From positions 1 to 64,000 of IMG/VR virus record IMGVR_UViG_3300042465_009257: DNA of 64,000 bases. One strand, written 5' to 3'. Under the pieces are notes generated by a model. The model saw only the letters and a list, made by a program, of their open reading frames with translations. It was not told where the DNA came from and did not search any database. The translations under genes were made by a program, and so were the position numbers. This stretch comes from a virus. This document shows, one piece after another, positions 5,765-30,970 of the stretch (within the stretch, counting starts at the first letter, position 1; the number at the start of each line of letters is the position of its first letter).

Positions 5765-5932
5765 ATGAAACTAAAAACAAAACGCCATAGCTTTCTCTTT
5801 TCTGATGAAACCGATTCCCTTATTCGCCGATTGGGGGAAGAAACTCAACTAAAATTCTGCACTATCTTTGAAAACGCTTTAAAGGATTATGCCAAAAAAT
5901 TAGAGCAAGCAAAACTAAAAGAAAATGTATAA
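5765..5932 (+). CDS. small ribbon-helix-helix-like DNA-binding protein (55 aa, not in ORF track)
   Basis: MKLKTKRHSFLFSDETDSLIRRLGEETQLKFCTIFENALKDY; alternating beta strand plus two helices; overlaps endonuclease start. Confidence 0.75.
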   Translation: MKLKTKRHSFLFSDETDSLIRRLGEETQLKFCTIFENALKDYAKKLEQAKLKENV

Positions 5933-6884
5933 GCTATCAGCACGGGGATTTACTTTCCCTGATAAAATTCGAGGAGTATATTCAATTCGAAATGAAGTCA
6001 ACGGAAAGCAATATGTAGGGAAAGCTGAGGGGCAGAAGGGATTTAAGGGACGATGGTATATCCACAAAAGCGATTTAAAGGCAAATAAACATCCCAACCA
6101 ACATCTTCAAAATGCTTATAATAAATACGGTATAGAAAATTTTACCTTCAATATTTTGGAAATTTGCGACCCATCAAAAGTTTCTATAAAAGAAAAGGAA
6201 GACGAATGGATTTTAAAACTTAATGTCAACGATTCAGAAATTGGTTATAATTGCATTTCACCAGCTAAACTTGAAGCGCATTTTAACTCGAAAAGATACA
6301 CGAATGAAAGCCGAACAGTCTATAAGTTTCGGTCTCCAGATGGGGAAATAATTTCTGGAAAAAATCTAATGCAGATTGCAAGAGATTTAAATCTTTCCAG
6401 TCATGGACTGAGGAAGGTGTTTTACGGAAAACAGTATTCGTTTTATGGTTATACTTCTACTAATCCAGATTTTTCCTCAAAACCTAAAAAAGAATACCGA
6501 TTACTTTCACCAGAAGGACTTATTCATGAATTTGACAATATAAACGAATTTGCGGCAAAAACTGGCTTAAGTAAAAACGGTCTTGGAAGAGTTTTAATGG
6601 GAAAACAGGGGCATTGTGGTGGATGGTCTCTTGAAAACCCAGAGCCTAAGTTTGTGGAAACAATAGAAGAATTTAATACTAAGATTTCTTTAGTTATGGA
6701 CGATAGTAAAATCCATAACTTTGCCACTGCAAAAAGCATTCAGAGAAAATATTCAGCGTCTTACAGTTTGATTAAAAATATACTATTAGGAAAGACACCT
6801 AGAGATTTTCCATTTAAAAAATGGAGAGTCGCTACCAATGAAGACTTTAAACTTTTAGAACAGGTGGAAGAAACCGAGGGATAA
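5925..6884 (+). CDS. GIY-YIG homing endonuclease
   Basis: GVYSI...YVG, R, HPNQHLQNAYNKYG, E, GYN motifs; repeated SPxG DNA-binding modules. Confidence 0.85.
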   Translation: MYKLSARGFTFPDKIRGVYSIRNEVNGKQYVGKAEGQKGFKGRWYIHKSDLKANKHPNQHLQNAYNKYGIENFTFNILEICDPSKVSIKEKEDEWILKLNVNDSEIGYNCISPAKLEAHFNSKRYTNESRTVYKFRSPDGEIISGKNLMQIARDLNLSSHGLRKVFYGKQYSFYGYTSTNPDFSSKPKKEYRLLSPEGLIHEFDNINEFAAKTGLSKNGLGRVLMGKQGHCGGWSLENPEPKFVETIEEFNTKISLVMDDSKIHNFATAKSIQRKYSASYSLIKNILLGKTPRDFPFKKWRVATNEDFKLLEQVEETEG

Positions 6885-9920: not shown

Positions 9921-10088
9921 ATGAAAAATAAAACAAAACGCCACAGCTTTCTCTTTTCAGAGGAAACGGATATTCTAATCCGTCGCCTTGCCGACGAGAC
10001 TCAACTGAAATTCTGCACCATTTTTGAGAATTCTTTGAAGGCTTACGCTAAAATTCACGACGAGAAAAAAAATGTATCAGGAAGATAA
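9921..10088 (+). CDS. small RHH-like protein (55 aa, not in ORF track)
   Basis: MKNKTKRHSFLFSEETDILIRRLADETQLKFCTIFENSLK, close paralog of 5765-5932. Confidence 0.75.
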   Translation: MKNKTKRHSFLFSEETDILIRRLADETQLKFCTIFENSLKAYAKIHDEKKNVSGR

Positions 10089-11124
10089 GGGTAAAATTTT
10101 TTATGTTTATATTTATCTCGATGACCGAAAACCGGGATGTTGGGAGTATAATGGGCAAGTTTTTGATTTTCAACCATTTTATATCGGAATGGGACAAGGG
10201 GTCAGAATGGAGCAACACACTCGGCCTTACTACAAAAGAGACGGATCTTTAAAATCTAAAATAATTAATAGAATTATAAGCGCTACTGGTAAAAACCCGA
10301 TATTCTACAAGGCTTATGAAGATTTGACTCGTGAAGAGGCATGGTCTATTGAAATAGATATGATAAGTCACTTTGGAAGGAGACATCTCCGAAATGGAGG
10401 TATTCTCGCTAATATTGACCCCGGTGGACAGGGCGAGGGGAAAGAAAAGCGAAAACCGAAAGAGTCTGATAAAGTAACTTTTATGCCTAAAAGCCAAGGG
10501 GTTAATCAGTATGACCTAAATGGAGAATTTATTCAAAAGTTTGACGCTGTCTTTCTAGCGGTCAGAAGTTTGGTCGGAAAAGATGCTACTGATCGGATGC
10601 GAAGGAATATTGCCCAAAATATAACAAATTGCTGCAAGGATAAAACAGGAAGTTCTCACGGGTTCATTTGGAAATTTGATAAGACTTTCCCTTATACACC
10701 CAAGGATGTAAATAACAGTTTAAAAAAGGAAGTTTTCCAGTATTCTCTTGAAGGAAGGTTTATTCAAAGATTTGAAACTCATACCGAGGCGTCTAAATTT
10801 CTAAACCTCCGTTCTGACAGAGATATAGGAGCTTGCGCATCTGGGAAAAAGCTAAGGGCTTATGGCTTTCAATGGAAGTCATCATATCTTGGAGAATTTA
10901 TTAATCCAGTTTCCCCTAAATCTCTTAGACAACCCGGCCTCCGAAGGAATTTTAACAAACCTATTAGCTCTTTTGACCTAATGGGAAGATTTGTTAAAAA
11001 TTATCCTTCTGCTACCGACGCGACATTAGAGTTGGGAATTTCTTCTATTTCCCGCGCCCTTAGCAACCCGAAAGCAACCATTGGGGGATATTATTGGAGA
11101 AGAGGCTTATATGAACCTAATTAG
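10072..11124 (+). CDS. GIY-YIG-superfamily homing endonuclease with NUMOD1-like repeats
   Basis: FYVYIYLD..PFYIGMG..R, E, LANI; three QYxLxGxFI-type repeats. Confidence 0.8.
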   Translation: MYQEDKGKIFYVYIYLDDRKPGCWEYNGQVFDFQPFYIGMGQGVRMEQHTRPYYKRDGSLKSKIINRIISATGKNPIFYKAYEDLTREEAWSIEIDMISHFGRRHLRNGGILANIDPGGQGEGKEKRKPKESDKVTFMPKSQGVNQYDLNGEFIQKFDAVFLAVRSLVGKDATDRMRRNIAQNITNCCKDKTGSSHGFIWKFDKTFPYTPKDVNNSLKKEVFQYSLEGRFIQRFETHTEASKFLNLRSDRDIGACASGKKLRAYGFQWKSSYLGEFINPVSPKSLRQPGLRRNFNKPISSFDLMGRFVKNYPSATDATLELGISSISRALSNPKATIGGYYWRRGLYEPN

Positions 11125-13411: not shown

Positions 13412-13645
13412 ATGAAAAAAATTAAATTATCAGAATATTGCAAGATTAATGGGATTACTTACCGGACTGGTTGGAACCACTTTAAAGCGGGAAAATTTGG
13501 AGACAAGGGAACAACAAATTCCAAGGGTGGTATGTTTATCGAAGTCGAAGAAATTACTGATAAATCTTTGGTTTCTGATCTTCAAGCCGCGATCTTTGAG
13601 TTAAAATCCGTTTCTTCACAACTCTTAGCCCAGATTATAAAATGA
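13412..13645 (+). CDS. MerR-type HTH protein (resembles IS607 TnpA N-terminus)
   Basis: KLSEYCKINGITYRTGWNHFKAGK; stop overlaps endonuclease ATG. Confidence 0.7.
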   Translation: MKKIKLSEYCKINGITYRTGWNHFKAGKFGDKGTTNSKGGMFIEVEEITDKSLVSDLQAAIFELKSVSSQLLAQIIK

Positions 13646-14811
13646 TGGAAGATTACGGAAGAAGGTTCTTTGTATATATTTTGCTCGATCCCAGAGAGCC
13701 TGGACTATGGGAGTATGGCGGAAGAGAGCTTCTTTTTCGTCCATTCTACGTCGGCAAGGGGTGCCAATATAGAGACCGTGTTCACAAAACCCCATCTTCG
13801 AGAAAGGAGAAAAACCTTAAAAATAATTTTATAAATAAAATTATAGCAGAAACGGGAGATTTTCATTTGTCCGAGAGGATTTTCGTTAATTTGACCGAAG
13901 GGGAATCAAAAAATATAGAGCAAAGCGTTATTAATTACTTCGGGAGGATAACCCAAAAGGACGGGATATTAACCAATATTCTAGGAAAATATGATATCAG
14001 AAAAAATGATAATTTTTTTGAAAAGGGAAAAAAGATATATTCTTTTAATTCCGAATTAAAGTTGGTTAAGGAATTTTTATCTTCCCGTCACGCCGCAATA
14101 GAGTTAAAAACATCTACTCAGCGATTGAATAAAGCAATTAATAATTTTGGTCAATATTCAATTGACGGATTTTATTTTGCGATATCTAAGGATGCCCCTG
14201 AAATTGCCCCTCCAATATTCAAACCCATCCGAACTGGTAGGGATTTTGAACTTATATCTCCCACTGGAGAACTAATCAAAGGAAATAATTTGCAACAATT
14301 CGCGAAAAGTATAGGTGTCGCCTCTTCCAACTTACACGTTCTTTTAGAGGGCGGGCTTGGTTCATGTTTAGGCTATAAATCAACCAACCCAGAATTTTGG
14401 CGAGAAAAGAAAAGTTACAGAATCTTATCTCCTGATAAAGAACTTTACGAATTCGATGAAATAAAATTTTTTGCGGACAAGATGGGGCTTAATTGTAAAA
14501 TTTTAAATAGAGTCTTGCTGAATAAAGTGTCTCACGCCGAAGGATTCCATCTTGAAAACCCATTGGAAAAATTCAAAAAAGCGATAGACCTTTCTATCCG
14601 GGGCTACAAACTTCTTAATCTGGAAACCAAAACTATTTATCAGTTCTTTTATATTGCGCCATTCGCAACTAAATTTAATATTTCTGTCTCTCGTTTGCGT
14701 AGACCCCTTCTTCAGAACAAAGAGGTAAATATCCCTGGCTGGAGATCGCCGACCTTAGAGGAATGTGAAAATTTGCCGACTATTTTAGAATCTCGGAAAA
14801 CCAATCTATAG
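13642..14811 (+). CDS. GIY-YIG-superfamily homing endonuclease
   Basis: FFVYILLDPR..PFYVGKG..R, E, LTNI; C-terminal SPxG modules similar to 5925-6884. Confidence 0.8.
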   Translation: MMEDYGRRFFVYILLDPREPGLWEYGGRELLFRPFYVGKGCQYRDRVHKTPSSRKEKNLKNNFINKIIAETGDFHLSERIFVNLTEGESKNIEQSVINYFGRITQKDGILTNILGKYDIRKNDNFFEKGKKIYSFNSELKLVKEFLSSRHAAIELKTSTQRLNKAINNFGQYSIDGFYFAISKDAPEIAPPIFKPIRTGRDFELISPTGELIKGNNLQQFAKSIGVASSNLHVLLEGGLGSCLGYKSTNPEFWREKKSYRILSPDKELYEFDEIKFFADKMGLNCKILNRVLLNKVSHAEGFHLENPLEKFKKAIDLSIRGYKLLNLETKTIYQFFYIAPFATKFNISVSRLRRPLLQNKEVNIPGWRSPTLEECENLPTILESRKTNL

Positions 14812-14861: not shown

Positions 14862-15092
14862 TTATTTTTGCTTAAAGTAATCTCTTGCAGAAATCTTTAC
14901 AAAATCACCTACAGAACTCTTTACAGAATCTCTTATTGCATCCCCTACTGAATCTTTTACAGCATCCCATACAGAATATTTTACAGAAATACCTACAGAA
15001 ATACCTACAGAATTCCATGCAGGAACTCTTATAGAACTCCCTACAGAATAATATACAGTGTTCCATACATATTTAGAAACGATATTATTCAT
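14862..15092 (-). CDS. SVxx-repeat array protein
   Basis: SV repeats, ends DYFKQK. Confidence 0.75.
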   Translation of the reverse strand: MNNIVSKYVWNTVYYSVGSSIRVPAWNSVGISVGISVKYSVWDAVKDSVGDAIRDSVKSSVGDFVKISARDYFKQK

Positions 15093-15289
15093 TGCTTTAT
15101 TTTAAAGTAATCTTTTGTAGAATTCTCTACAGTAATATATACAGAACCCCTTACAGACCACCATACAGAATCCGATACAGAAAATCTTACAGAATCCGCT
15201 ACAGAATACCTTACAGAATCCCTTACAGACATCCTTACAGAACGCCATACAGAATCCATTATAGCTTCGTAAACGATAGAGTCATTCAT
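15089..15289 (-). CDS. SVxx-repeat array protein
   Basis: SV repeats, ends DYFKIKQ. Confidence 0.75.
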   Translation of the reverse strand: MNDSIVYEAIMDSVWRSVRMSVRDSVRYSVADSVRFSVSDSVWWSVRGSVYITVENSTKDYFKIKQ

Positions 15290-15301
15290 TGCTTTATTAT
15301 A

Positions 15302-15622
15302 TCAGAGTTCGTTTTGAAAGTAATCCCTTACAGACCTCCCTACAGAATCCCTTACAGACATCCATACAGTATCCTGTACAGACCTCCATACAGTATCCTG
15401 TACAGACCTCCATACAGTATACTTTACAGTATCCTTTACAGAATCCACTACAGAATCCCTTACAGACATCCATACAGTATCCTGTACAGACCTCCATACA
15501 GTATCCTGTACAGACCTCCATACAGTATACTTTACAGTATCCTTTACAGAATGCTTTACAGAATCCGATACAGAATGATATACAGATTCCCACACAGTTT
15601 TAAAAACATCATAGCTATTCAT
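15302..15622 (-). CDS. SVxx-repeat array protein with internal tandem duplications
   Basis: VWRSVQDT units repeated; ends DYFQNEL. Confidence 0.75.
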   Translation of the reverse strand: MNSYDVFKTVWESVYHSVSDSVKHSVKDTVKYTVWRSVQDTVWRSVQDTVWMSVRDSVVDSVKDTVKYTVWRSVQDTVWRSVQDTVWMSVRDSVGRSVRDYFQNEL

Positions 15623-15798
15623 TGCTTTATTATATCAGAGTTCGTTTGAAAGTAATCTTCTACAGAATGCTGTACAGAAATATACACAGAATTCCTTATA
15701 GGATTCCATACAGTAATCCCTATATAATTTCTTACAGAACCACATACAGAATTCGCTATAGAACACCATACAGCTTGTCTAATATTAGATTTATTCAT
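15619..15798 (-). CDS. SVxx-repeat array protein (59 aa, not in ORF track)
   Basis: MNKSNIRQAVWCSIANSV...DYFQTNSDIIKQ. Confidence 0.7.
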   Translation of the reverse strand: MNKSNIRQAVWCSIANSVCGSVRNYIGITVWNPIRNSVYISVQHSVEDYFQTNSDIIKQ

Positions 15799-16004
15799 TT
15801 TTGTTTAAAGTAATCTTTTGCATAATCTCTTGCAAAATCTTTTGCAAGATCTTCTAATAAATCTCTTATAGGATTCATTACAGACCACCATACAGAACTC
15901 GATACAGAGTACGATACAGGTTTCTTTACAAGATAACCTACAGAACTCCATATAGACTCCTGTATAGAAACATCTACAGTTTTACACAGGTCAAAGTCAT
16001 TCAT
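15795..16004 (-). CDS. SVxx-repeat array protein
   Basis: ends DYFKQK. Confidence 0.75.
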   Translation of the reverse strand: MNDFDLCKTVDVSIQESIWSSVGYLVKKPVSYSVSSSVWWSVMNPIRDLLEDLAKDFARDYAKDYFKQK

Positions 16005-16013
16005 TGCTTTATT

Positions 16014-16205
16014 TTATCGGAGTTTGTTTTTAAAGTAATCTTTTGCAGAATGCCCTACAGAAACCCTTACAAAATTCCTTGCAGACATCCATACAGAATC
16101 TCTTACAAGATGCTTTACATTACTCCTTACAGAATCCATTACAGAACACCTTACAGTATTCTCTACAACATCCCACACAGCTTTACAAACGATAGAGTTA
16201 TTCAT
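16014..16205 (-). CDS. SVxx-repeat array protein
   Basis: ends DYFKNKLR. Confidence 0.75.
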   Translation of the reverse strand: MNNSIVCKAVWDVVENTVRCSVMDSVRSNVKHLVRDSVWMSARNFVRVSVGHSAKDYFKNKLR

Positions 16206-16438
16206 TGCTTTGTTTTAAAGTAATCTTTTGCAGAATCCTCTACAGACTCCCATACAGAATCCCCTACAGAATCTTTTACAGAATCTCTTACAGAATCTCT
16301 TACAGAATCTTTTACAGAACTCGCTACAGAGTTCCATACAGAACCACTTGCGGGATCCTCTACAGGCTCCCATACAGAACACACTACAGAATTCCAGACA
16401 GACTCCCACACAGCTTTATAAACGATAGAGTCGATCAT
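16202..16438 (-). CDS. SVxx-repeat array protein
   Basis: ends DYFKTKQ. Confidence 0.75.
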   Translation of the reverse strand: MIDSIVYKAVWESVWNSVVCSVWEPVEDPASGSVWNSVASSVKDSVRDSVRDSVKDSVGDSVWESVEDSAKDYFKTKQ

Positions 16439-16641
16439 TAGTTTATATTATTTTTAAAGCAATCTTTTGTAGAATTCTCTACAGAACCCTTTACAGCATC
16501 CCATACAGAACCCTTTATAGAACTCCATACAGAATCCTTTACAAAACTCCGTACAGGATCTTCTACAGACTCCCATACAGAACTCACTACAGGCTCCCAC
16601 ACAGACTCCCACATACTTTTACAAACGATAGAGTTATTCAT
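16438..16641 (-). CDS. SVxx-repeat array protein
   Basis: ends DCFKNNIN. Confidence 0.75.
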   Translation of the reverse strand: MNNSIVCKSMWESVWEPVVSSVWESVEDPVRSFVKDSVWSSIKGSVWDAVKGSVENSTKDCFKNNIN

Positions 16642-16653
16642 TAGTTTATATTA

Positions 16654-16974
16654 TCAGAAGTCGTATCGTCTTGGAAGTAATATATGCAATAACTTTTTTA
16701 TTGGTGAAATTGGTTTTGGTTCTTTAATTGGTTTTTGTTCTTTAATTGCTGGACGAGCTAAGTGATATCCTCCTACACGTATCAACATTAGCATATCATT
16801 GTGATGCTCTGCTGGTATGCCCGTAAAATCAAATGTTGCAGTTACTCCATAACCATGTGCGGTCACATAGTCTTTTATTTTTAGAATTGGTGGGACATTC
16901 GTAATGAGGGATGGATTAGAGTCATATATCGATATGGTCTCTGTGACTATTTTAGTGGTTTCAGACATGTACAT
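16654..16974 (-). CDS. hypothetical protein (non-family insert in array)
   Basis: 106-aa ORF without SV repeats. Confidence 0.6.
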   Translation of the reverse strand: MYMSETTKIVTETISIYDSNPSLITNVPPILKIKDYVTAHGYGVTATFDFTGIPAEHHNDMLMLIRVGGYHLARPAIKEQKPIKEPKPISPIKKLLHILLPRRYDF

Positions 16975-17192
16975 TGATCAGTTAATTTAATGCATTTCAT
17001 TTCCCACTGATAAACTACTTTGCCCCATTTTGCCCATTTTCGGCGTCTTTTGGAGGTGAGTTTTTTATCTAATAGTCGAGAGACTCTTGTAACCGACTGT
17101 TTTGCTTTTGATTGTGCGCGAATATAAGATCCCAACGTGGAAGGATTGGACAAGCTCCAAATATCGCTGAATATTTTATAATTTTTTATCAT
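16947..17192 (-). CDS. hypothetical basic protein (non-family insert in array)
   Basis: 81-aa ORF downstream of TTGACA-N16-TACTAT at about 17221-17248. Confidence 0.55.
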   Translation of the reverse strand: MIKNYKIFSDIWSLSNPSTLGSYIRAQSKAKQSVTRVSRLLDKKLTSKRRRKWAKWGKVVYQWEMKCIKLTDQCTCLKPLK

Positions 17193-17218
17193 TTTTTAAT
17201 TGCCGAGTAGGACTATAC

Positions 17219-17488
17219 CTATAGTAGCTCAAAGTCTTGTGTTGTCAAGGAGTTTTGTTCAAAGTGATCATAGACAGAATCGTCTACAATATTCCCTATA
17301 GAGGTTTCTACAGCAACTTCCACAGAATTCCATCCAAACTCCCATACTGCACTCAGTACAGAAACATATACATGATTATGTATATGATTATGTATATGAT
17401 TATATAAAGAATCTGTTATAACTATCCATACATTACCCCATGTGTAATCTTTCAAATTAAAATCTTTAGCGCTGCTTTTATTATTCAT
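17219..17488 (-). CDS. SVxx-repeat array protein
   Basis: VWEFGWNSV subfamily, DHFEQN. Confidence 0.7.
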   Translation of the reverse strand: MNNKSSAKDFNLKDYTWGNVWIVITDSLYNHIHNHIHNHVYVSVLSAVWEFGWNSVEVAVETSIGNIVDDSVYDHFEQNSLTTQDFELL

Positions 17489-17709
17489 TTTTGTTGAAAG
17501 TAATCATTCGCGGACTGCCACACATCATCCCTTAGAGAGGTATCTACACCAACGTCTACCGCATCCCATCCAAAGTCCCATACAGATGTGCTTATTATCC
17601 TTACAGAACTGATTATAGAATTATAAACAGACTCTCCTATAGCATCATAGGCAAATCTCCATGTGTGATCATCCACATTAAAATTATTAGCTTTGTTTTT
17701 TTTATTCAT
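17485..17709 (-). CDS. SVxx-repeat array protein
   Basis: close paralog of 21941-22168; ends DYFQQK. Confidence 0.75.
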   Translation of the reverse strand: MNKKNKANNFNVDDHTWRFAYDAIGESVYNSIISSVRIISTSVWDFGWDAVDVGVDTSLRDDVWQSANDYFQQK

Positions 17710-17935
17710 TTTTTAAGCGTTTTCTTTTAAAGTATTCTGCTGTAGTGTCTATTACAGAATTTCCTACAGAATTTCCTACAGATTGCCATATAGAATTGTC
17801 TACAAAATTTTCTACAGAATAGCCCACAGAATCCTCTAAAGCACTCCATACATAATCCTTTACCGTATCCTCTATAGAATTTCCTACAGAATGCGATACG
17901 GAAAACCACACGGCAATGCTTATATTATGGTTCAT
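17702..17935 (-). CDS. SVxx-repeat array protein
   Basis: start trimmed to MNHNISI; EYFKRK. Confidence 0.7.
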   Translation of the reverse strand: MNHNISIAVWFSVSHSVGNSIEDTVKDYVWSALEDSVGYSVENFVDNSIWQSVGNSVGNSVIDTTAEYFKRKRLKNE

Positions 17936-18173
17936 TTTGTTCAAAGTAAAAATAAACTCTTGCAGCATCTCTTATAGAACGCTCTATAGAGCCTTGTGCA
18001 GTATGCCATATTAAATCCGATACAGTTTTCCTTGCTTCCAATCCTGGCAGATCCTTCTTAGAATCCATTATAAGCTCGTCTAAAGAATTTGTTAAAACTC
18101 TCAAACCAGTATCATCACGACTCCATAAAAAATAGCATACATTCTCCACTACATTGTTTAAATTATTATTCAT
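17925..18173 (-). CDS. divergent array protein
   Basis: start trimmed to MNNNLNN; SIRDAARVYFYFEQNE end. Confidence 0.6.
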   Translation of the reverse strand: MNNNLNNVVENVCYFLWSRDDTGLRVLTNSLDELIMDSKKDLPGLEARKTVSDLIWHTAQGSIERSIRDAARVYFYFEQNEP

Positions 18174-18406
18174 TTTTTCCTCCGTTTCTTTTTGAAATAT
18201 TCTTCTACACTTTCCCATACATTACTCCTTGCAGATGTTCTCACTGATCTTACTATAACAGCACTTATATTATTGTTTATAATTCTCCAAGTGTCCTGAT
18301 CTACTTCTTTTAATATTATATCCCTTACATTACCGCTCGCAGGACTTGATACATTAAATGTATTTTTATTAAATTGATTTACGTACTGATTCTGGATGTA
18401 TATCAT
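18170..18406 (-). CDS. divergent array protein
   Basis: VWESVEEYFKK end. Confidence 0.65.
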   Translation of the reverse strand: MIYIQNQYVNQFNKNTFNVSSPASGNVRDIILKEVDQDTWRIINNNISAVIVRSVRTSARSNVWESVEEYFKKKRRKK

Positions 18407-18594
18407 AGTTCATTTTGTTTAAAGTAATCTTTTGAAGACCTTCCTACAAGATAACATACAGATCTCCTTATAGGAACTCCTACAGAATCATATACAGAAT
18501 CCCTTACAGAAATCCACGTAGAACACCATATCAAATCTCTTACGGAATCCCATACAGCTTTCCTTACGGCTTCACCAACGGTAGAATTACTCAT
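18403..18594 (-). CDS. SVxx-repeat array protein
   Basis: ends DYFKQNEL. Confidence 0.75.
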   Translation of the reverse strand: MSNSTVGEAVRKAVWDSVRDLIWCSTWISVRDSVYDSVGVPIRRSVCYLVGRSSKDYFKQNEL

Positions 18595-18784
18595 TTTGTT
18601 TAAAGTAATCGCTTGCAGATTGTTCTATAGAAATTCCTACAGACCAATTTACAGAATTCCATACAGGTCGGCGTGCAGCTACTCGTACTGAATAATGCAT
18701 TGAACCATTTATAGAATACTCTACAGAATCTGCAAGACAATTATATACAACATACGAAACGGCTGTACTAATAGTATTATTCAT
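18587..18784 (-). CDS. SVxx-repeat array protein
   Basis: ends DYFKQNE. Confidence 0.75.
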   Translation of the reverse strand: MNNTISTAVSYVVYNCLADSVEYSINGSMHYSVRVAARRPVWNSVNWSVGISIEQSASDYFKQNE

Positions 18785-18989
18785 TTTCAAAGTAATCTCT
18801 TATAGAATCCCTCATAGAATCCTTTATATGCCACATTACAGGACGAATTACAGTCCCACATACTGTATCCCGCACAGCTACTCGTACTGAATAACATATT
18901 GAACGACTTAGAGAATTCTCTACAGAATCTATAAGAGAATTATATACAACATATGAAGCGGCTGTGTTAATAGTATTATCCATTTGCAT
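18777..18989 (-). CDS. SVxx-repeat array protein
   Basis: paralog of neighbour; ends DYFENE. Confidence 0.75.
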   Translation of the reverse strand: MQMDNTINTAASYVVYNSLIDSVENSLSRSICYSVRVAVRDTVCGTVIRPVMWHIKDSMRDSIRDYFENE

Positions 18990-18992
18990 AGA

Positions 18993-19190
18993 TTAATTCC
19001 AAAATATATCCATCAACCATTTTCTCAAGCTACGAGGAGCGGGTTTTTTAGGAATTTCTTGCCAGTTTTTATATAGACAATCTCGTAATGTCTCCCTACA
19101 GTACCCAGCATATTTTGAGCAATAGTCGAGGCAATGCATATCTCTAACGATACAATGTGCGCAAGTATGACAGTTGATGATTTTTTTCAT
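18993..19190 (-). CDS. small Cys-rich protein (non-family insert in array)
   Basis: CHTCAHC..C..C..C..C; starts at an array junction. Confidence 0.65.
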   Translation of the reverse strand: MKKIINCHTCAHCIVRDMHCLDYCSKYAGYCRETLRDCLYKNWQEIPKKPAPRSLRKWLMDIFWN

Positions 19191-19456
19191 TTTTGTTTAA
19201 AGTACTCTCTTACAGACTCTCCTATAGTAGCTTTTATAGAATCGTTTATAACGCTCCGTACAGAACTCCATACAGAATCTCTTGCAGACTTCTCTACAGA
19301 CTCCCATACAGAATAATATACAGACCCCCATACAGAATAATATACAGACCCCCATACAGAATAATATACAGAATAATATACAGAATCCTTTATTGTATCC
19401 TCTACAGAACTCCATACAAAATATCTCACAGCTTTACGAGCGATAGATTCATTCAT
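19187..19456 (-). CDS. SVxx-repeat array protein
   Basis: SVYYSVWG tandem units; EYFKQK. Confidence 0.75.
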   Translation of the reverse strand: MNESIARKAVRYFVWSSVEDTIKDSVYYSVYYSVWGSVYYSVWGSVYYSVWESVEKSARDSVWSSVRSVINDSIKATIGESVREYFKQK

Positions 19457-19463
19457 TGCTTTA

Positions 19464-19670
19464 TTAATTTTTAAAATAATCTCTTATAGAGCCTCTTACA
19501 GTAGCTTTTATAGAATCGTTTACAGCGCTCTCTACAGAATCTCTTGCAGAATCCCATACAGGACACCGTACAAACCCCTCTATATAATGCCATGCAGAGT
19601 CCCTTGCAGAATTTTCTACAGAATCCATTACAGACTCCAATGTATTTTCATAAACGATAGAATAATTCAT
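19464..19670 (-). CDS. SVxx-repeat array protein
   Basis: ends DYFKN. Confidence 0.75.
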   Translation of the reverse strand: MNYSIVYENTLESVMDSVENSARDSAWHYIEGFVRCPVWDSARDSVESAVNDSIKATVRGSIRDYFKN

Positions 19671-19906
19671 TGCTTTATTTTATCTGAGTTCGTTTGAAAG
19701 TAATCTTTTGCAGAATCTCTTACAAAATTTGAGACAGAAGTCCTTACAGATCCTCGTATAGAATCCCATACAGATCGTTCTACAGAATCCACTACAAAAT
19801 CCCATACAGAACCCCTTACAGAATCCCATACAGAACCCCTTACAGAATCCCATACAGAGTTCCATAGCGCTTTCTTTTCAGTTTCAAAATCTATAGATTC
19901 ATTCAT
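19667..19906 (-). CDS. SVxx-repeat array protein
   Basis: SVWDSVRG units; DYFQTNSDKIKQ. Confidence 0.75.
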   Translation of the reverse strand: MNESIDFETEKKALWNSVWDSVRGSVWDSVRGSVWDFVVDSVERSVWDSIRGSVRTSVSNFVRDSAKDYFQTNSDKIKQ

Positions 19907-20100
19907 TTTGTTTTAAAGTAATCTCTTGCAGACACATCTACAGAGTCCAATATAGAATCTGATATAGGGTCCCATACGGAACGCCATACGGAACGCCATA
20001 CAAGACCCTTTACAGCACCTCGTACAGCTTTATCTACAGAACCCTCTACAGTATTCTCTACAAAATCCCATACAGCCTCGAAAACGGTAGATTCATTCAT
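19903..20100 (-). CDS. SVxx-repeat array protein
   Basis: ends DYFKTK. Confidence 0.75.
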   Translation of the reverse strand: MNESTVFEAVWDFVENTVEGSVDKAVRGAVKGLVWRSVWRSVWDPISDSILDSVDVSARDYFKTK

Positions 20101-20252
20101 TGCTTTATTATATTAGAATTCGTTTGAAAGTAATCTTCTACAGAATCATATACAGAATCCCTTACAGAACTCCATGTAGAACCCCATATCGAATCCCTTA
20201 CGGAATCCCATACAGCTTTCCTTACAGCTTCAGCAACGGTAGAATTATTCAT
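20097..20252 (-). CDS. SVxx-repeat array protein (51 aa, not in ORF track)
   Basis: MNNSTVAEAVRKAVWDSVRD...DYFQTNSNIIKQ; paralog of 18403-18594. Confidence 0.7.
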   Translation of the reverse strand: MNNSTVAEAVRKAVWDSVRDSIWGSTWSSVRDSVYDSVEDYFQTNSNIIKQ

Positions 20253-20460
20253 TTTGTTTAAAGTAATCTTTTACAGCATTCCATACAAAGTCATGTATAC
20301 TATCTGTTTCAGAATAATAATTTAAGATATCTTCTACATCATGCCTTGCCCGCCAATGTAGAGATTTATAAGCTTCATCTTCTATAATTTGCTGTGCATT
20401 ATCACATACAGCATTTCTCGCATTATGCCACACTAAATATCTAATGCTATTATCTTTCAT
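20245..20460 (-). CDS. divergent array protein
   Basis: ends VKDYFKQNE. Confidence 0.7.
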   Translation of the reverse strand: MKDNSIRYLVWHNARNAVCDNAQQIIEDEAYKSLHWRARHDVEDILNYYSETDSIHDFVWNAVKDYFKQNE

Positions 20461-20708
20461 TCTGTTTCAAAATAATCTCTCGTAGCATTTTCTGATGCGG
20501 CAAATACAGATCCCACTATTGCACGGCTCGAACGATCTGTCAATGCAGCAATCGTTAAATTTCTTAGCGCGTTAAATCTTACAGCATAACCAGTAGTATT
20601 AAATAGAGTATCATACATAGAAGCTCTAAAACTTTTCCATATAGAATTCTCTATAGAATTTAGTACTGTTTCAGTAATAAAAGTTTTAGTAATAAGGAAA
20701 TCATTCAT
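20457..20708 (-). CDS. divergent array protein
   Basis: start trimmed to MNDFLIT; DYFETE. Confidence 0.7.
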   Translation of the reverse strand: MNDFLITKTFITETVLNSIENSIWKSFRASMYDTLFNTTGYAVRFNALRNLTIAALTDRSSRAIVGSVFAASENATRDYFETE

Positions 20709-20941
20709 TGCTTTATCCATTTTTGATTGAAGTAATTACTTACAGAGTTTGCTATGGAAATCTCTATAGACAGTTTTACCGTGTCCCATACGGCATTTCT
20801 GATGTATTTACCCGCAGCAGTCCATGCCTTATATTCTACAGAAGCATCTATATTATCTAACATGAGATATGCTACAGAATTAGACACTAATTTTGACGGA
20901 GAATATCTTACATTCTCTCTTATAGTTTTATTCGTTTTCAA
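20705..20941 (-). CDS. array protein with ACG at the usual start position
   Basis: NYFNQK end; junction reads AAACGAATAA instead of AAATGAATAA. Confidence 0.6.
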   Translation of the reverse strand: MKTNKTIRENVRYSPSKLVSNSVAYLMLDNIDASVEYKAWTAAGKYIRNAVWDTVKLSIEISIANSVSNYFNQKWIKQ

Positions 20942-21107
20942 AGCAACTTCTTACAGAATCTCTTACTAACGTTTCGATATTCCACTGAGAATTCCAAGCA
21001 TGCTTAATTACAGAGGACCATAAAGAATCATCTACAAAATCCTTTCCAGAAATACCTATACAATAACTCGGGCAAATCAAGGTGTAATACCTTATTTTAG
21101 TATTCAT
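20928..21107 (-). CDS. array protein (59 aa, not in ORF track)
   Basis: MNTKIRY...VRDSVRSCFENE. Confidence 0.65.
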   Translation of the reverse strand: MNTKIRYYTLICPSYCIGISGKDFVDDSLWSSVIKHAWNSQWNIETLVRDSVRSCFENE

Positions 21108-21306
21108 TTTTAAAGTAATCTTTTGCAGAGATTTCTACACTCGTTATTATAGAAGTCTCTGGAGTATTCCATATAGAATTCCAAGTAGAATCTCTCACGC
21201 CATCTTTTACAGAATCTTTGACTGACTTCCTGACAGCATCCCAAGCAGATTCTTTAATAGCAAAATACACATCGAGCAGCACAGAATTATTTAATTGATT
21301 ATTCAT
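21097..21306 (-). CDS. SVxx-repeat array protein
   Basis: ends DYFKNEY. Confidence 0.75.
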   Translation of the reverse strand: MNNQLNNSVLLDVYFAIKESAWDAVRKSVKDSVKDGVRDSTWNSIWNTPETSIITSVEISAKDYFKNEY

Positions 21307-21499
21307 TTTGTTTAAAGTAATCTTTTGCAGAATCTGCTACTAAAAGTCTTATAGAGTCTTTCCTCAATTCGTATAAAGAATCTTTCGCAGAATCCACTAC
21401 AAAATACTGTACAGAATTCCTTATAGAACTCCATATAGAATTCCCTACAGAAGTTGCTGTAGAACCCCATATAGCTTTATAAACGGCAGAATTATGCAT
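21299..21499 (-). CDS. SVxx-repeat array protein
   Basis: ends DYFKQNE. Confidence 0.75.
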   Translation of the reverse strand: MHNSAVYKAIWGSTATSVGNSIWSSIRNSVQYFVVDSAKDSLYELRKDSIRLLVADSAKDYFKQNE

Positions 21500-21698
21500 T
21501 TTGTTTAAAGTAGTCGTAAGAAGCTTGACTAATGCAATTTTTTATAATTTGTTGTGAATGCCAAGCGCTGCCCCATACTGGATGCCATACAGAAGTTGAT
21601 ACTCCATTCACAACAAACTTCCATACAGGATTATCTACTGATTTTGTCATAGACATTTGCACAGAAAAAGTAGTCATGTCACTTATTTTATTAATCAT
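21492..21698 (-). CDS. SVxx-repeat array protein
   Basis: ends DYFKQNA. Confidence 0.75.
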   Translation of the reverse strand: MINKISDMTTFSVQMSMTKSVDNPVWKFVVNGVSTSVWHPVWGSAWHSQQIIKNCISQASYDYFKQNA

Positions 21699-21700
21699 TT

Positions 21701-21931
21701 TTATTTGAGGCGATCTCTTACAGCATTTTCTATAGACTTATCTACAGAATCATTCACCGAAACTCTCAGAAAGTCGTCTATAGCATCATCTATCGATGAT
21801 ATTACAGAATTCTTTACAGAACTCACTACAGTAACCCAAATAGGCATCCACGTATATTCTTGTATAGCATCCTCTACAGCATCCCACACAAAATTTCTTA
21901 CAATGTTACCAGCTTTATTATCAAATTTCAT
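21701..21931 (-). CDS. SVxx-repeat array protein
   Basis: SV periodicity; ends VRDRLK. Confidence 0.7.
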   Translation of the reverse strand: MKFDNKAGNIVRNFVWDAVEDAIQEYTWMPIWVTVVSSVKNSVISSIDDAIDDFLRVSVNDSVDKSIENAVRDRLK

Positions 21932-21940
21932 AGCAGCTTA

Positions 21941-22168
21941 TTATTTACTTTCTTTAAAGTAATCTTGCACCGATAGCCATACAGCATCTCTTGCAGAGGT
22001 CTTTACGGTTTCCTCTACCGCATCCCATCCAAAGTCCCATACAGATGTGTTTATTACCCTTAGAGATCTTACTGTAGAACTATAAACAGATTCTCCTATA
22101 GCATCATATGCAAATTTCCATGTGTGGTCACATATGGCAAAATCTTTAACGGTTTTTTTATTATTCAT
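21941..22168 (-). CDS. SVxx-repeat array protein
   Basis: close paralog of 17485-17709; DYFKESK. Confidence 0.75.
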   Translation of the reverse strand: MNNKKTVKDFAICDHTWKFAYDAIGESVYSSTVRSLRVINTSVWDFGWDAVEETVKTSARDAVWLSVQDYFKESK

Positions 22169-22349
22169 TTTGCTTAAAGTAATCTCTTACAAACCCCCAC
22201 ATAGAATTTTTTATATTAGTCGAAACAGGATTTTCTACAGAATTAACCACATAAAGCCGAATATCAAGCGATGCCCCGCCAATCACATGAGGCCATAATA
22301 CAGGTGCCGCTACAAAATTATTTACAGAATATCCTATTTTATTATTCAT
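22161..22349 (-). CDS. array protein
   Basis: ends DYFKQNE. Confidence 0.7.
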   Translation of the reverse strand: MNNKIGYSVNNFVAAPVLWPHVIGGASLDIRLYVVNSVENPVSTNIKNSMWGFVRDYFKQNE

Positions 22350-22569
22350 TTGTTTTAAAGTAATCTAGCGCAGCGTCCTCTATACTAGACCAAGCATTTT
22401 CTATTACTAAACTCCTTACACGCTCTCCCGTCCAATCTCTTAGATTACTTCGTACAGAAGTACTGACACATCTCAACATAGGTTGTCTTAAATCATTACA
22501 CAGAGTATATCCTGGAGAATCTGCTACTGAATCTACAACACAACAGGTTTCGTTTAATGATTGGTGCAT
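22342..22569 (-). CDS. array protein (first member)
   Basis: ends DYFKTNE. Confidence 0.7.
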   Translation of the reverse strand: MHQSLNETCCVVDSVADSPGYTLCNDLRQPMLRCVSTSVRSNLRDWTGERVRSLVIENAWSSIEDAALDYFKTNE

Positions 22570-22589
22570 TATATTGAATGATGAAATGA

Positions 22590-22628
22590 AAAGACCCTCT
22601 GAAGAAATAAATACTTCAGAGGGTCTTT
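22590..22628 (-). terminator. 15-bp hairpin, probable intrinsic terminator or processing site
   Basis: AAAGACCCTCTGAAG-N9-CTTCAGAGGGTCTTT perfect inverted repeat followed by T-rich run on minus strand. Confidence 0.75.
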
Positions 22629-22640
22629 ATTTAGCTAAAA

Positions 22641-22979
22641 TCAATCAGCTACATTTCGTTTAGCCTGAGCGATGTAGTCATACTCTTGCTGAATCCCAAT
22701 CACATAAGTGCCAGGAACAATGTCAATAGTCGTATGGCGTTCAGACATTACACAGCTAATGTCGGTTGGCACCGTACTATTCATGTAACGTTTGCCAGTA
22801 GTCTTGGAGTTATAAAAAGTTACCCCAGGCTTATTCGCAATGACATGATGGTTTCCCGTAACTTCGCTGTTGGCGACGATGACTGATTTAGTGAGATGAG
22901 TCTCAGCAATAGCGTCATCAGGCAAGCCTGCGCACTGAGCTACGATACATTCACCGTGAAGGATGATTTTATTTTTCAT
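22641..22979 (-). CDS. His-motif beta protein typically adjacent to DUF6745 genes
   Basis: HGE..SEVTGNHH..H.TI...PG.Y....QQEYD......VAD pattern. Confidence 0.75.
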   Translation of the reverse strand: MKNKIILHGECIVAQCAGLPDDAIAETHLTKSVIVANSEVTGNHHVIANKPGVTFYNSKTTGKRYMNSTVPTDISCVMSERHTTIDIVPGTYVIGIQQEYDYIAQAKRNVAD

Positions 22980-22995
22980 ATATTTATTATTTAGA

Positions 22996-23952
22996 TTAAG
23001 CGATACCGACAATTTCGTGATCAGACAAATCAATGTCTCCAAGCCGTTCAGCAATTGCTTGTTTTAGAGTTTTGCATTCTGGGGATACACTTTCAACATG
23101 CCAGACTCCTACAGTCTGATTAAGCATCTTGAGATGAGGAGCATAAGGAATTCCTGGGAAAAGCACCGCCATATCCCACAACTCGTATTCACTCTTCGTC
23201 CACCAATCTTCATTATAGTTTTCGTAAGAATCAATCTTTTTGCCGAAAGAAAGCATACGCTCTACGCCGAATTTGCGAACGAACTCCATCTTGTGATCAG
23301 CATTCTCCAATTCGTTGTACTGATCAAGCGTAAGTTGACTACTAGGAGTCACCGCCAACCATTCAGGAACTCGCGTTCCATTGAGAATAAAGATTTTATT
23401 CAGACCGTATCCGTCGTAAGCAATGGCTGGCCCTCCATCACAATGAGTTACGTTATCTTCATTCAAATGAATCTCAGTAGGCTTCTGAGATACAACAACC
23501 GCAGTTGGCATTGGATAGATTTGGCCAAGCTTGTGAGTAGAGTGCCAAATAGCGTAATTTTCAGTAGCTTCTTTAAAATCAATTCCAACTTCATCTTTAA
23601 AGAAATCATAGAAACTCCAAACATTAGCGTCAAAGCTGCCATTGAGATAAGGCGTAGTATAAGTCTCAATAGTCATCTTGAGGCCCTTGACGAAATATTC
23701 CTCAACTTTAGCGGGAACATCTTTTACCTCAACGCCTTCTTTCAAGAAGTGACAAGCAACCCATGCTTCTACAGGATTATTAACAATAATAACTGGAGTC
23801 GGCTCAGTTTTGAGCAGGTTAATCTGCACTTTGTGGATGATATCTACAGTCTCATCATAGTCGAGACGATCAGTATTGATGCCAATTGCCAGCCACTTTT
23901 TGGTGTATTCTGGCATTTTAGCCGTCTGTTCGGGAGTAAGGGATTCGATCAT
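22996..23952 (-). CDS. DUF6745-like protein lacking internal low-complexity repeat
   Basis: MIESLTPEQ..KWLAIG N-terminus, WSFYDFF, HCDGGPAIAY, NGTRVP. Confidence 0.75.
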   Translation of the reverse strand: MIESLTPEQTAKMPEYTKKWLAIGINTDRLDYDETVDIIHKVQINLLKTEPTPVIIVNNPVEAWVACHFLKEGVEVKDVPAKVEEYFVKGLKMTIETYTTPYLNGSFDANVWSFYDFFKDEVGIDFKEATENYAIWHSTHKLGQIYPMPTAVVVSQKPTEIHLNEDNVTHCDGGPAIAYDGYGLNKIFILNGTRVPEWLAVTPSSQLTLDQYNELENADHKMEFVRKFGVERMLSFGKKIDSYENYNEDWWTKSEYELWDMAVLFPGIPYAPHLKMLNQTVGVWHVESVSPECKTLKQAIAERLGDIDLSDHEIVGIA

Positions 23953-29932: not shown

Positions 29933-30970
29933 ATGAAAAAAATAACTACGGAACAATTAACGACGGAACAAGAAACTGTTATAAGAGAATACTATTCCAC
30001 CAAAGGTCTGGCATTTTGTGCTCGGTTATTAGGACTGTCTAAGAGTTTTATCTCAAAACATGCTAATTTCCTTGGAATCAAAACGAAAGCTGAACAAACT
30101 TATGCATTCTTGGATCAATTTTTAGATATAAAAGATCCTTATGTCGCCTATTTCTTAGGATTCATGTGGGCGGATGGGAATATAGATTACAACTCTATTC
30201 GATTGGAAATTTCTGATACTGACGCTCAAGAGTTAAAACCCTTATTCGGTAAAATCGGCGTGTGGAAAACATCGTCTCGGCAGCGTTATAAGAAAGGTAA
30301 AAAATTTGGCTCACTTATGACTTGTTTTCGGTTATCCGACAAAAAACTAGCTTCACTTTTAAGAGATTGCGACTATAAAATAAAATCTACGGTTTCTCCT
30401 AATAAGATCTTGAATAAGATTCCTAGTGATTTACATAAATATTTTTGGCGTGGTTATTTGGACGGTGATGGAAACATTAATGTTTCTGTCGAAAGAAAGG
30501 AGTATTTCGAACGACTTGGGGTTAAAGTCAAGGCTAGAATTTTTAATATAGCTTTTTGGTCAACTTTAAATCAAGATTGGACTTCACTTATCGAATTTCT
30601 CGAACTTCAAAAGGTAGAACATCATATTACTTTTTATCAACGACTCTCTAAGAATGGGAAAATTCACAAGTCTTCAGCGCTAGCTATCAATGGAAACGCT
30701 TCTCAAAAACTTTCTTTTTTGCAATTATTATATTCCGATGGGCCTATGGGTATAAGTAAAAAATACAATAAGGTTGAAATTGCCGAAGAATATGTTCGGA
30801 CATCTCTCAAAGTGGAGACATCTTTATTTTATAAGGAGAGGAGGTTGAAAATTCGCGACATGCTCCTTGACAATATGTCTTACGGGGAAATCGGAGAGGT
30901 GCTAGGGCTTAACGCTTACCGCATTAAAGAAATTGCAGGAACAAAATGTCTGACTAGCTTATTGACTTAG
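29933..30970 (+). CDS. LAGLIDADG homing endonuclease
   Basis: AYFLGFMWADG and FWRGYLDGDG; TTTCT-N17-TGTAAA upstream (29871-29898). Confidence 0.85.
   Translation: MKKITTEQLTTEQETVIREYYSTKGLAFCARLLGLSKSFISKHANFLGIKTKAEQTYAFLDQFLDIKDPYVAYFLGFMWADGNIDYNSIRLEISDTDAQELKPLFGKIGVWKTSSRQRYKKGKKFGSLMTCFRLSDKKLASLLRDCDYKIKSTVSPNKILNKIPSDLHKYFWRGYLDGDGNINVSVERKEYFERLGVKVKARIFNIAFWSTLNQDWTSLIEFLELQKVEHHITFYQRLSKNGKIHKSSALAINGNASQKLSFLQLLYSDGPMGISKKYNKVEIAEEYVRTSLKVETSLFYKERRLKIRDMLLDNMSYGEIGEVLGLNAYRIKEIAGTKCLTSLLT

Follow-up and report, generated by a model that had tools for sequence, protein, structure and literature searches.

A tandem array of 32 mini-genes beside a repeat-less DUF6745 gene in a freshwater phage: a candidate detached repeat module

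The stretch analysed here, hereafter the window, comprises positions 1-64,000 of IMG/VR record IMGVR_UViG_3300042465_009257, whose parent phage record of 173,358 bp is rated complete by CheckV. On the minus strand, between 14862 and 22569, open reading frame (ORF) listing and alignment resolve exactly 32 paralogous ORFs of 51-106 amino acids (aa), which we call mini-genes and which are built from phased four-residue repeats, or tetrads. They sit downstream of, and on the same strand as, two constant genes: a DUF6745 gene that lacks the repeat tract found inside other DUF6745 proteins (the core) and a small gene with conserved His motifs (the partner). An earlier, model-made note on this DNA had counted about 32 head-to-tail repeat ORFs, an estimate that the ORF listing, the alignment and a hidden Markov model (HMM) of the family turn into an exact number. 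The layout is that of a viral multigene family, or of a probable detached repeat module of an uncharacterised protein family. Its parts, from one end of the array to the core, are as follows.

14862-16641, minus strand: array block 1, eight mini-genes with the most regular (S-V-x-x)n tracts (ORF listing, alignment)
16654-16974 and 16947-17192, minus strand: two small ORFs of 106 and 81 aa inside the array that fall outside the family (no match to the mini-gene HMM)
17219-18989, minus strand: array block 2, eight more divergent mini-genes, some with uncertain starts (ORF listing, HMM, alignment)
18993-19190, minus strand: a Cys-rich ORF of 65 aa inside the array (no match to the mini-gene HMM or to any family)
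19187-22569, minus strand: array block 3, 16 mini-genes (ORF listing, HMM, alignment)
22641-22979, minus strand: the His-motif partner gene, 112 aa (weak phrog_27831 match; conserved next to the core)
22996-23952, minus strand: the repeat-less DUF6745 core gene, 318 aa (Pfam PF20530, 28.7 bits; fold)

The mini-gene array

The 32 paralogues follow a single plan: an MN- or MK-like beginning, a run of strictly phased tetrads, and a D-Y-F-[KQ] end, or cap, whose F is more than 90% conserved. Two tetrad positions form a scaffold and two are free. Position 1 is S in 61% of tetrads (otherwise A, T, N or P) and position 2 is V in 75% and I in 25%; position 3 is variable (W 19%, R 18%, also E, K, G and Y), and position 4 is D in 27% and N in 11%, with many other residues in the remainder. 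The phase of V/I is nearly constant: in 15302-15622, a mini-gene of 106 aa that holds an internal 108-nt duplication, 24 of 25 V/I residues share one phase. Within one genome, the ends of the mini-proteins are conserved more than their middles. Every unit has its own ATG or TTG start, its own stop and a coupling overlap, neighbouring mini-genes mostly overlapping by 4 or 8 nt (ATGA type), and the junction DNA between them falls into two conserved types. Three mini-genes (17702-17968, 17925-18218 and 18170-18406) probably start at internal ATGs. On these sequence features, we read the 32 mini-genes as real, co-directional and translationally coupled genes. The family HMM finds no further copies outside the array in the whole 173,358-bp genome; the mini-genes match no named family, and an ESM Atlas search of a mini-protein gave just unnamed viral clusters.

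The ORFs that interrupt the array have features of their own. Within the two that lie between blocks 1 and 2, 16726-16936 is 87% identical to DNA of the related locus L010. The Cys-rich ORF at 18993-19190 carries the motif CHTCAHC...C..YC...C and shares a 4-nt overlap with the start of the next mini-gene.

Could the repeat instead be non-coding DNA with a 12-bp period, serving as a set of binding sites or an origin, or an assembly artefact, with the ORFs as by-products? The hexamer TCTGTA does recur every 12 nt, short-read assemblies do break inside the array, and periodic DNA keeps several frames open on both strands, as at 15092-15649 on the plus strand. Yet only the minus-strand frame has regular starts and stops, N- and C-terminal caps and the orientation of the flanking genes; this is the frame homologous to the DUF6745 tract described below, and indels preserve it. 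Nor is the assembly an isolated one: the 64-kb stretch is nearly whole (0.91-0.96 of sampled words) in lake-water metagenomes from four further, independent studies of 2020-2024. A non-coding or artefactual origin is, on this evidence, extremely improbable. With parts of the stretch also present in additional metagenomes dating back to 2017, the phage is a recurrent freshwater phage. The data sets listed as containing the stretch include none of RNA.

The core pair and the DUF6745 tract

The upstream gene had been called DUF6745-like from its letters, and both profile and fold uphold that assignment. The core scores 28.7 bits against Pfam DUF6745 (PF20530), narrowly above the gathering cut-off of 27 (29.1 bits in a six-frame search), the match being partial, with residues 136-235 on profile positions 33-129 of 206. 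Its AlphaFold2 (AF2) model, built on an alignment of 55 sequences, has a mean predicted local distance difference test score (pLDDT) of 93.1. Compared as predicted model with predicted model, it resembles a BFVD DUF6745 protein of Microcystis phage LMM01 (E 6.5e-17, template-modelling (TM) score 0.59) and a viral DUF6745 cluster in the ESM Atlas (TM 0.75 over residues 1-317); it also resembles a cyanobacterial ESM Atlas cluster in which DUF6745 is fused to leucine-rich repeats (LRRs; TM 0.70). By HMM and predicted fold, the core is a member of DUF6745.

What the core does not have is a tetrapeptide tract, and the 237 homologues of 283-354 aa that align with it end to end are likewise tract-free. 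The earlier note was therefore right that this copy lacks the repeat, but the absence is not a local loss: in the core tree, the repeat-less form is the norm of a large clade and its ancestral state. Core residues 79-88 (DVPA-KVEE-YF), judged by eye, may be a remnant of two or three tetrads and a cap.

The partner is marked by the conserved residues HGEC...SExTGNHHV...RH...QQEYD and by a weak match to phrog_27831. It has no match in Pfam, NCBIfam, PADLOC or PDB sequences, and its Atlas matches are unnamed viral clusters. Of 33 viral-contig loci, 31 have a partner homologue within the flanks of the core, as do 4 of 4 metagenome-assembly loci and 3 of 3 further fused loci; counted over related loci with a split or fused core, the figure is 34 of 36. 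This confirms the earlier note's statement that a His-motif gene is the usual neighbour of a DUF6745 gene. Since the homologue is kept near the core in nearly all loci, core and partner form a conserved two-gene module. Measured against the relatives L006, L008 and L010, the ratio of nonsynonymous to synonymous substitution rates (dN/dS) is 0.02 for the core and 0.03-0.04 for the partner, and synonymous sites are saturated or nearly so. Both genes of the core pair are strongly constrained by purifying selection.

The tract that the core lacks is what the mini-genes resemble. Among 1.84 billion cluster representatives, a profile built from the 32 mini-proteins matched 1963 proteins at E<=0.001 and 298 at 1e-10, with scores inflated by the biased composition of the repeat. 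The best matches (E 1e-47 to 1e-29) are proteins of 400-574 aa. Six of eight long matches scanned with Pfam contain DUF6745, five of them above the cut-off, and in the long matches that were read out, an N-terminal domain is followed by a long (S-V-x-D)n tract and then by the DUF6745 domain. Two members of the core's own subfamily, L034 (449 aa) and L036, have (x-Q-V-x)n tracts that lie precisely after the N-terminal domain and ahead of the motif PYxxGSF..FSFYDFF, and the mini-gene HMM matches both tracts. The fused tracts end in ...KDFV-WPY or ...GYFV-YPY, endings that resemble the mini-gene cap ...DYF-KQ, so that a [DG]-[YF]-[FV] cap recurs in the same register. A word-based search returned no core homologues longer than the core; the fused forms were found through their loci and the profile search instead. 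The earlier note had given an SVWD/QVWD-like tract between the N-terminal domain and a WxxFYDF motif as a common family trait, and SVxD and QVxD tracts are indeed common there, in most DUF6745 proteins, ahead of ...GSF..FSFYDFF. Judged by profile and register, the mini-genes are the stand-alone counterpart of the DUF6745 internal tract.

The same tetrad tract is found in unrelated architectures, for example in a phage family ending LVPSFDGxIWRLH (P0139, P0167, L064, L118), and it is therefore a portable module. In these proteins (P0139; P0167; L064:6147-6881 (-); L118:10570-11478 (+)), (SVWD)n links an N-terminal domain to a conserved C-terminal one, which ends in ...LW..GLVPSFDGKIWRLH; the family has no Pfam match.

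Polymorphic toxin systems, too, have a constant gene with a downstream array of variable modules that resemble part of it; their stand-alone cassettes as a rule have no start of their own and enter the main gene by recombination (PMC3482391). The earlier note had allowed that the mini-genes might be donor cassettes. These would be silent units whose recombination into the DUF6745 gene alters its tract, in the manner of polymorphic-toxin or antigenic-variation cassettes. The head-to-tail units share conserved junction sequences, and the array is rearranged between populations, both of which fit such a scheme; however, the core DNA is stable (about 80% identity among relatives) where the array is scrambled, and no contig joins a mini-gene to the core ORF. 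More decisively, and unlike in polymorphic toxins, each unit here is a complete gene with its own start, stop and 4-8-nt coupling overlap, whereas the main gene has neither the module nor a shared recombination handle: the core and its 237 homologues hold no recipient tract, save for the possible remnant of two or three tetrads. Because of these last two features, we reject donor cassettes, a reading that we consider very improbable.

Linkage, turnover and variation

The comparison across phages covers 33 viral-contig loci with a core relative together with the loci of selected proteins, all scanned with the mini-gene, core and partner HMMs; near-duplicate loci were collapsed and mini-genes counted within flanks of about 10 kb. 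At least three mini-genes are present at 17 of 22 dereplicated repeat-less loci versus none of 5 fused loci (Fisher p=0.003, uncorrected for relatedness), and no mini-gene of any kind lies near the core in those 5 fused loci. Related repeat-less loci hold up to 27 mini-genes each; the window has 32. Arrays thus accompany repeat-less and not fused cores, the association that the earlier note had singled out for testing. In the core tree, the repeat-less forms make up a single, starred clade that excludes L030 and the fused forms.

Across this clade, mini-genes are still found close to the core where core identity has fallen to about 42-50%. Arrays lie upstream of the core, downstream of it or on both sides, depending on lineage, and lineages differ in tetrad flavour (SV, NV, QV) and in cap (DYFKQ, KDLIKSHDT, NKINETIT, EYEY and others). 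Because arrays change side, flavour and cap and yet remain near the core, the linkage has outlasted rearrangement, and this long-term retention is more telling than the contrast between fused and split forms.

A few records have a core-like gene or an array and not the other. Two complete records (55.8 kb and 230 kb) contain a core-like gene and no mini-genes; that gene belongs to a divergent subfamily without GSF..FYDFF. Conversely, L055 has a mini-gene array without a core, on a 48-kb fragment that is 23% complete, and no capped array was found in a complete record without a core. At the DNA level, the pattern (TCTGT N7) x5 occurs in 118 stretches of viral contigs, 94 of which have no match to the mini-gene HMM. 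It is common in L039-L156, viral contigs that include giant-virus metagenome-assembled genomes, mostly as unrelated simple repeats without caps or diversity. The few-copy matches in core-less records proved to be perfect simple repeats (GSVP, NSVV, SVVQ) without a cap and were rejected as family members.

The stability of the core pair is set off against an array in flux. DNA of the core pair is about 80% identical to that of L006, L008, L009 and L010, and the arrays of these phages are not collinear at all; the best match in those relatives for each mini-protein of the window has a median identity of 40-43%, the core 89-93%. Alignable pairs of mini-genes have dN/dS values of 0.47-2.8. The mini-genes, in short, turn over rapidly.

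Variation is distributed unevenly within the 12-nt unit. The scaffold codons are TCT (87%) and GTA (88%), which in the large genes of the window account for 34% and 22%, and each of the six nucleotides of the two variable codons has an entropy of 1.2-1.9 bits, so that the free residues are close to saturation. The synonymous pair chosen for the scaffold differs by lineage: TCT GTT in L013, TCT GTC in L029, TCA GTT in L025, CAA GTG in L030, and CAG GTC in the fused L034 and L036. TCT GTA is kept in the tetrads of the window, L006, L008 and L010, though synonymous sites in the core are saturated; this shared choice could result from unit turnover or from a constraint at the nucleotide level.

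Length varies in the same unit. Tandem Repeats Finder reports periods of 12, 24, 36 and 108 nt in the array, and contigs of three other lake or freshwater metagenome studies carry a 24-nt (two-tetrad), in-frame deletion at 19303 in the mini-gene 19187-19456, an instance of repeat-number variation at the population level. Short-read assemblies from other samples break in the array and show alternative junctions, many with flanks of less than 35 nt inside repeats; the solid short-read evidence consists of the 24-nt deletion and the general breakage of assemblies. Whole units may move as well: the mini-gene 19464-19670 is 90% identical to L010:16524-16736, with a synonymous divergence (dS) of 0.024, and the low dS of this pair against the synonymously saturated cores of the two phages suggests a recent exchange of a single mini-gene between diverged phages. 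The overall pattern is as expected if 12-nt units are continually gained and lost through slippage and unequal crossing-over, coupled with rapid selected change at the two free positions.

Variation limited to defined codons, next to fixed synonymous sites, would also be expected if a diversity-generating retroelement directed hypermutation to the two variable residues. Such elements depend on a reverse transcriptase, and the complete 173-kb genome has none (RVT_1); change affects each of the six nucleotides of the variable codons and is not confined to adenines; a template/variable repeat pair is absent; and length changes in 12-nt steps, which fits slippage. Retroelement-driven diversification is, we conclude, most unlikely.

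Predicted docking and its interpretation

One complex was predicted, that of the repeat-less core with the mini-protein of 14862-15092 (first row), with alignments of the core and of the mini-gene family supplied. All three runs gave an interface score ipSAE (interaction prediction score from aligned errors) of 0.82, against 0.00 for the best of 3 controls; in calibration, 58 of 80 solved complexes reached that mark, as did 2 of 110 mismatched pairs. The runs share at least 91% of contacts, with a partner-chain pLDDT of at least 79, and the mini-protein, which has a pLDDT of 80 when paired with the core, has one of 41 when paired with an unrelated chain. In the predicted interface, the C-terminal half of the mini-protein, including the DYF cap, and parts of its N-terminus face core residues 60-71, 95-118 and 145-194, which flank the point at which the tract is inserted in fused proteins. 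The model supports docking of the mini-protein on the core, and it is from this model that the earlier idea of an externalised module acting in trans draws its support.

We posit that detached and multiplied copies of the tract dock on the constant core pair as interchangeable recognition subunits; this is the best explanation of the locus, and we put its probability at about 0.55. In the ancestor of the clade, the tract would have left the core gene, which would have kept at most a remnant of two or three tetrads. The detached tract would have persisted as separate genes and then multiplied and diversified through 12-nt slippage, whole-gene duplication and deletion at conserved junctions, and occasional exchange. 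Each mini-protein would fold onto a single conserved core (together with the His-motif partner) via its conserved ends, above all the DYF cap, and the 32 variants would be interchangeable recognition subunits that give a constant core many surfaces. LRR-DUF6745 fusions and the residues W, R, Y, G, D and N at the free positions are compatible with a recognition role upstream of the DUF6745 domain. The arena would most likely be phage-host conflict, through counter-defence or host takeover, a suggestion made by analogy because of the mycobacteriophage protein Tweety gp54 discussed below and the cyanobacterial DUF6745 proteins with LRRs. The mini-genes might serve as specificity modules or as anti-defence decoys, the roles floated at the outset.

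The mini-proteins may, alternatively, descend from the tract and now act alone, as free binders, decoys or inhibitors of host proteins, in which case their adjacency to the core would reflect descent and a hyperplastic early-gene region. The residues at the variable positions (W, R, Y, G, D, N) have a chemistry suited to binding, and the tract, portable as it is in unrelated proteins such as the LVPSFDGxIWRLH family, has no need of DUF6745; but it is the ends of the mini-proteins, not their middles, that are conserved within a genome, and the complex model would place those very ends on the core (controls 0.00). Likewise, some repeat-less cores have few or no mini-genes in their flanks, as independent action would allow, yet arrays that have switched side and order are still linked to the core pair at about 42-50% core identity, and none of the complete records without a core showed a capped array. 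Independent action is a serious alternative, if in our view the less likely one.

Several points weigh against docking on the core as the explanation. (i) The contrast between fused and split forms comes down to one or two evolutionary transitions in the core tree. (ii) Five dereplicated repeat-less loci, all on incomplete records (14-53% complete), have fewer than three mini-genes in their flanks, and the repeat-less core may work alone. (iii) The tract is modelled solely as low-confidence helices: in the model of fused L034 it forms three long helices with a pLDDT of 40-59. (iv) Because fused DUF6745 proteins exist, the complex score may echo learned intramolecular contacts of those proteins; halves of split genes tend to pass the complex test, and the alignments used were ones that we supplied. 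(v) Cap type and core interface residues show no clear co-variation across lineages. (vi) The core fold has no solved counterpart, with a best E of 0.39 (cut-off 0.001) in a Foldseek search of the PDB and a best Z of 4.0 among 48,161 chains in VIA-align.

Docking could be taken one step further, to a combinatorial adaptor repertoire in which the strongly conserved two-protein core is loaded with any of the 32 subunits, each presenting its own recognition surface, and one enzyme or effector could be directed at many targets in host defence or takeover. On that proposal, which we advance tentatively, the 12-nt design with its scaffold codons, fixed down to synonymous sites, would have been kept since slippage and unequal crossing-over readily yield new specificities.

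The array belongs to a phage with no close cultured relative. The window has a G+C content of about 37% and no tRNA genes. A Shine-Dalgarno (SD)-like motif precedes just 1 of 33 large window genes and the regions 5' of genes are A-rich, which together suggest a host that initiates translation independently of SD sites, for example a Bacteroidota-like one; the phage makes no use of SD sites, so their absence before the mini-genes is uninformative. Promoter and terminator scans gave signals at chance level. Other genes of the window encode an RNA ligase, a DUF932 protein, an AAA ATPase, a DnaE-type polymerase and homing endonucleases. The four homing-endonuclease genes (5925-6884; 10072-11124; 13642-14811, plus strand; 29933-30970, plus strand) lie on the strand opposite to their neighbours; three are of the GIY-YIG/NUMOD type and one is weakly LAGLIDADG-like, and one stops 50 nt from the end of the array. 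In the DnaE-type polymerase ORF (61774-63999, minus strand), whose frame exceeds the window, the N-terminus matches the C-terminal half of DNA_pol3_alpha (profile positions 128-260), and the gene may be split or interrupted upstream. A tblastn search of a phage collection gave no match to the core protein among cultured phages, and all cultured relatives of the DnaE-like gene are below 60% identity (26% in the best rows).

The closest known systems are the fused DUF6745 proteins (PF20530 / phrog_31813) that have a phrog_27831-like partner, such as P0121, P0124, L034:10001-11347 and the gene 38 region of the Mycobacterium prophage prophiGD102-1. The core is one of them by HMM and predicted fold, the mini-genes match their internal tract by profile, and the His-motif partner is the same; the difference is that in the present phage the core is without the tract, which 32 separate genes encode instead. 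No mention of DUF6745 was found in the collection of papers searched.

The closest studied analogue, though not a homologue, is gp54 of mycobacteriophage Tweety (considered with Che8 gp57 and PMC gp51), the only studied protein that has a repeat of this kind; its mutable repeat number tunes counter-defence against Phrann gp29/gp30 (PMC2884959, PMC9262239). In its A-A-x-x tract, third codon positions are invariant and the first and second positions of the variable residues change (PMC2884959). In both systems, two residues of the tetrad are fixed and two vary, synonymous sites do not change, and repeat number differs between isolates; gp54 is an early-region phage gene. They differ in scaffold (A-A in gp54, S-V here) and in that gp54 has a single fused tract and no stand-alone array; counter-defence has been demonstrated for gp54 only. 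A comparison of gp54 with the mini-gene family by hhalign gives a probability of 0.1% (E 0.72), and gp54 has no Pfam match.

Among eukaryotic viruses, the ankyrin/F-box and BTB-kelch families of poxviruses and the multigene families of African swine fever virus are families of repeat-protein adaptors that behave as 'genomic accordions'. There too, small repeat proteins that plug into a constant machine of the host or the virus are amplified in tandem and then diversified. Those viruses, however, use larger, structurally known repeats that dock on known host ligases, whereas the present case involves a phage, a 4-residue unit and a core protein encoded by the virus.

Many phages and prophages encode DUF6745 proteins with tetrapeptide tracts; the mini-gene profile alone has 1963 significant matches among cluster representatives. 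The split form found here separates the variable module from the constant core, and its 32 natural variants in one genome make the role of the tract testable. Should the docking model prove right, phages would have a previously unseen means of carrying many specificities on one effector, and the mini-proteins would offer a small natural scaffold, made of 4-residue units in which two positions are free, of possible interest for binder design. If the 32 subunits do form a combinatorial repertoire, this would be a virus-encoded germline repertoire system of a kind not described in phages.

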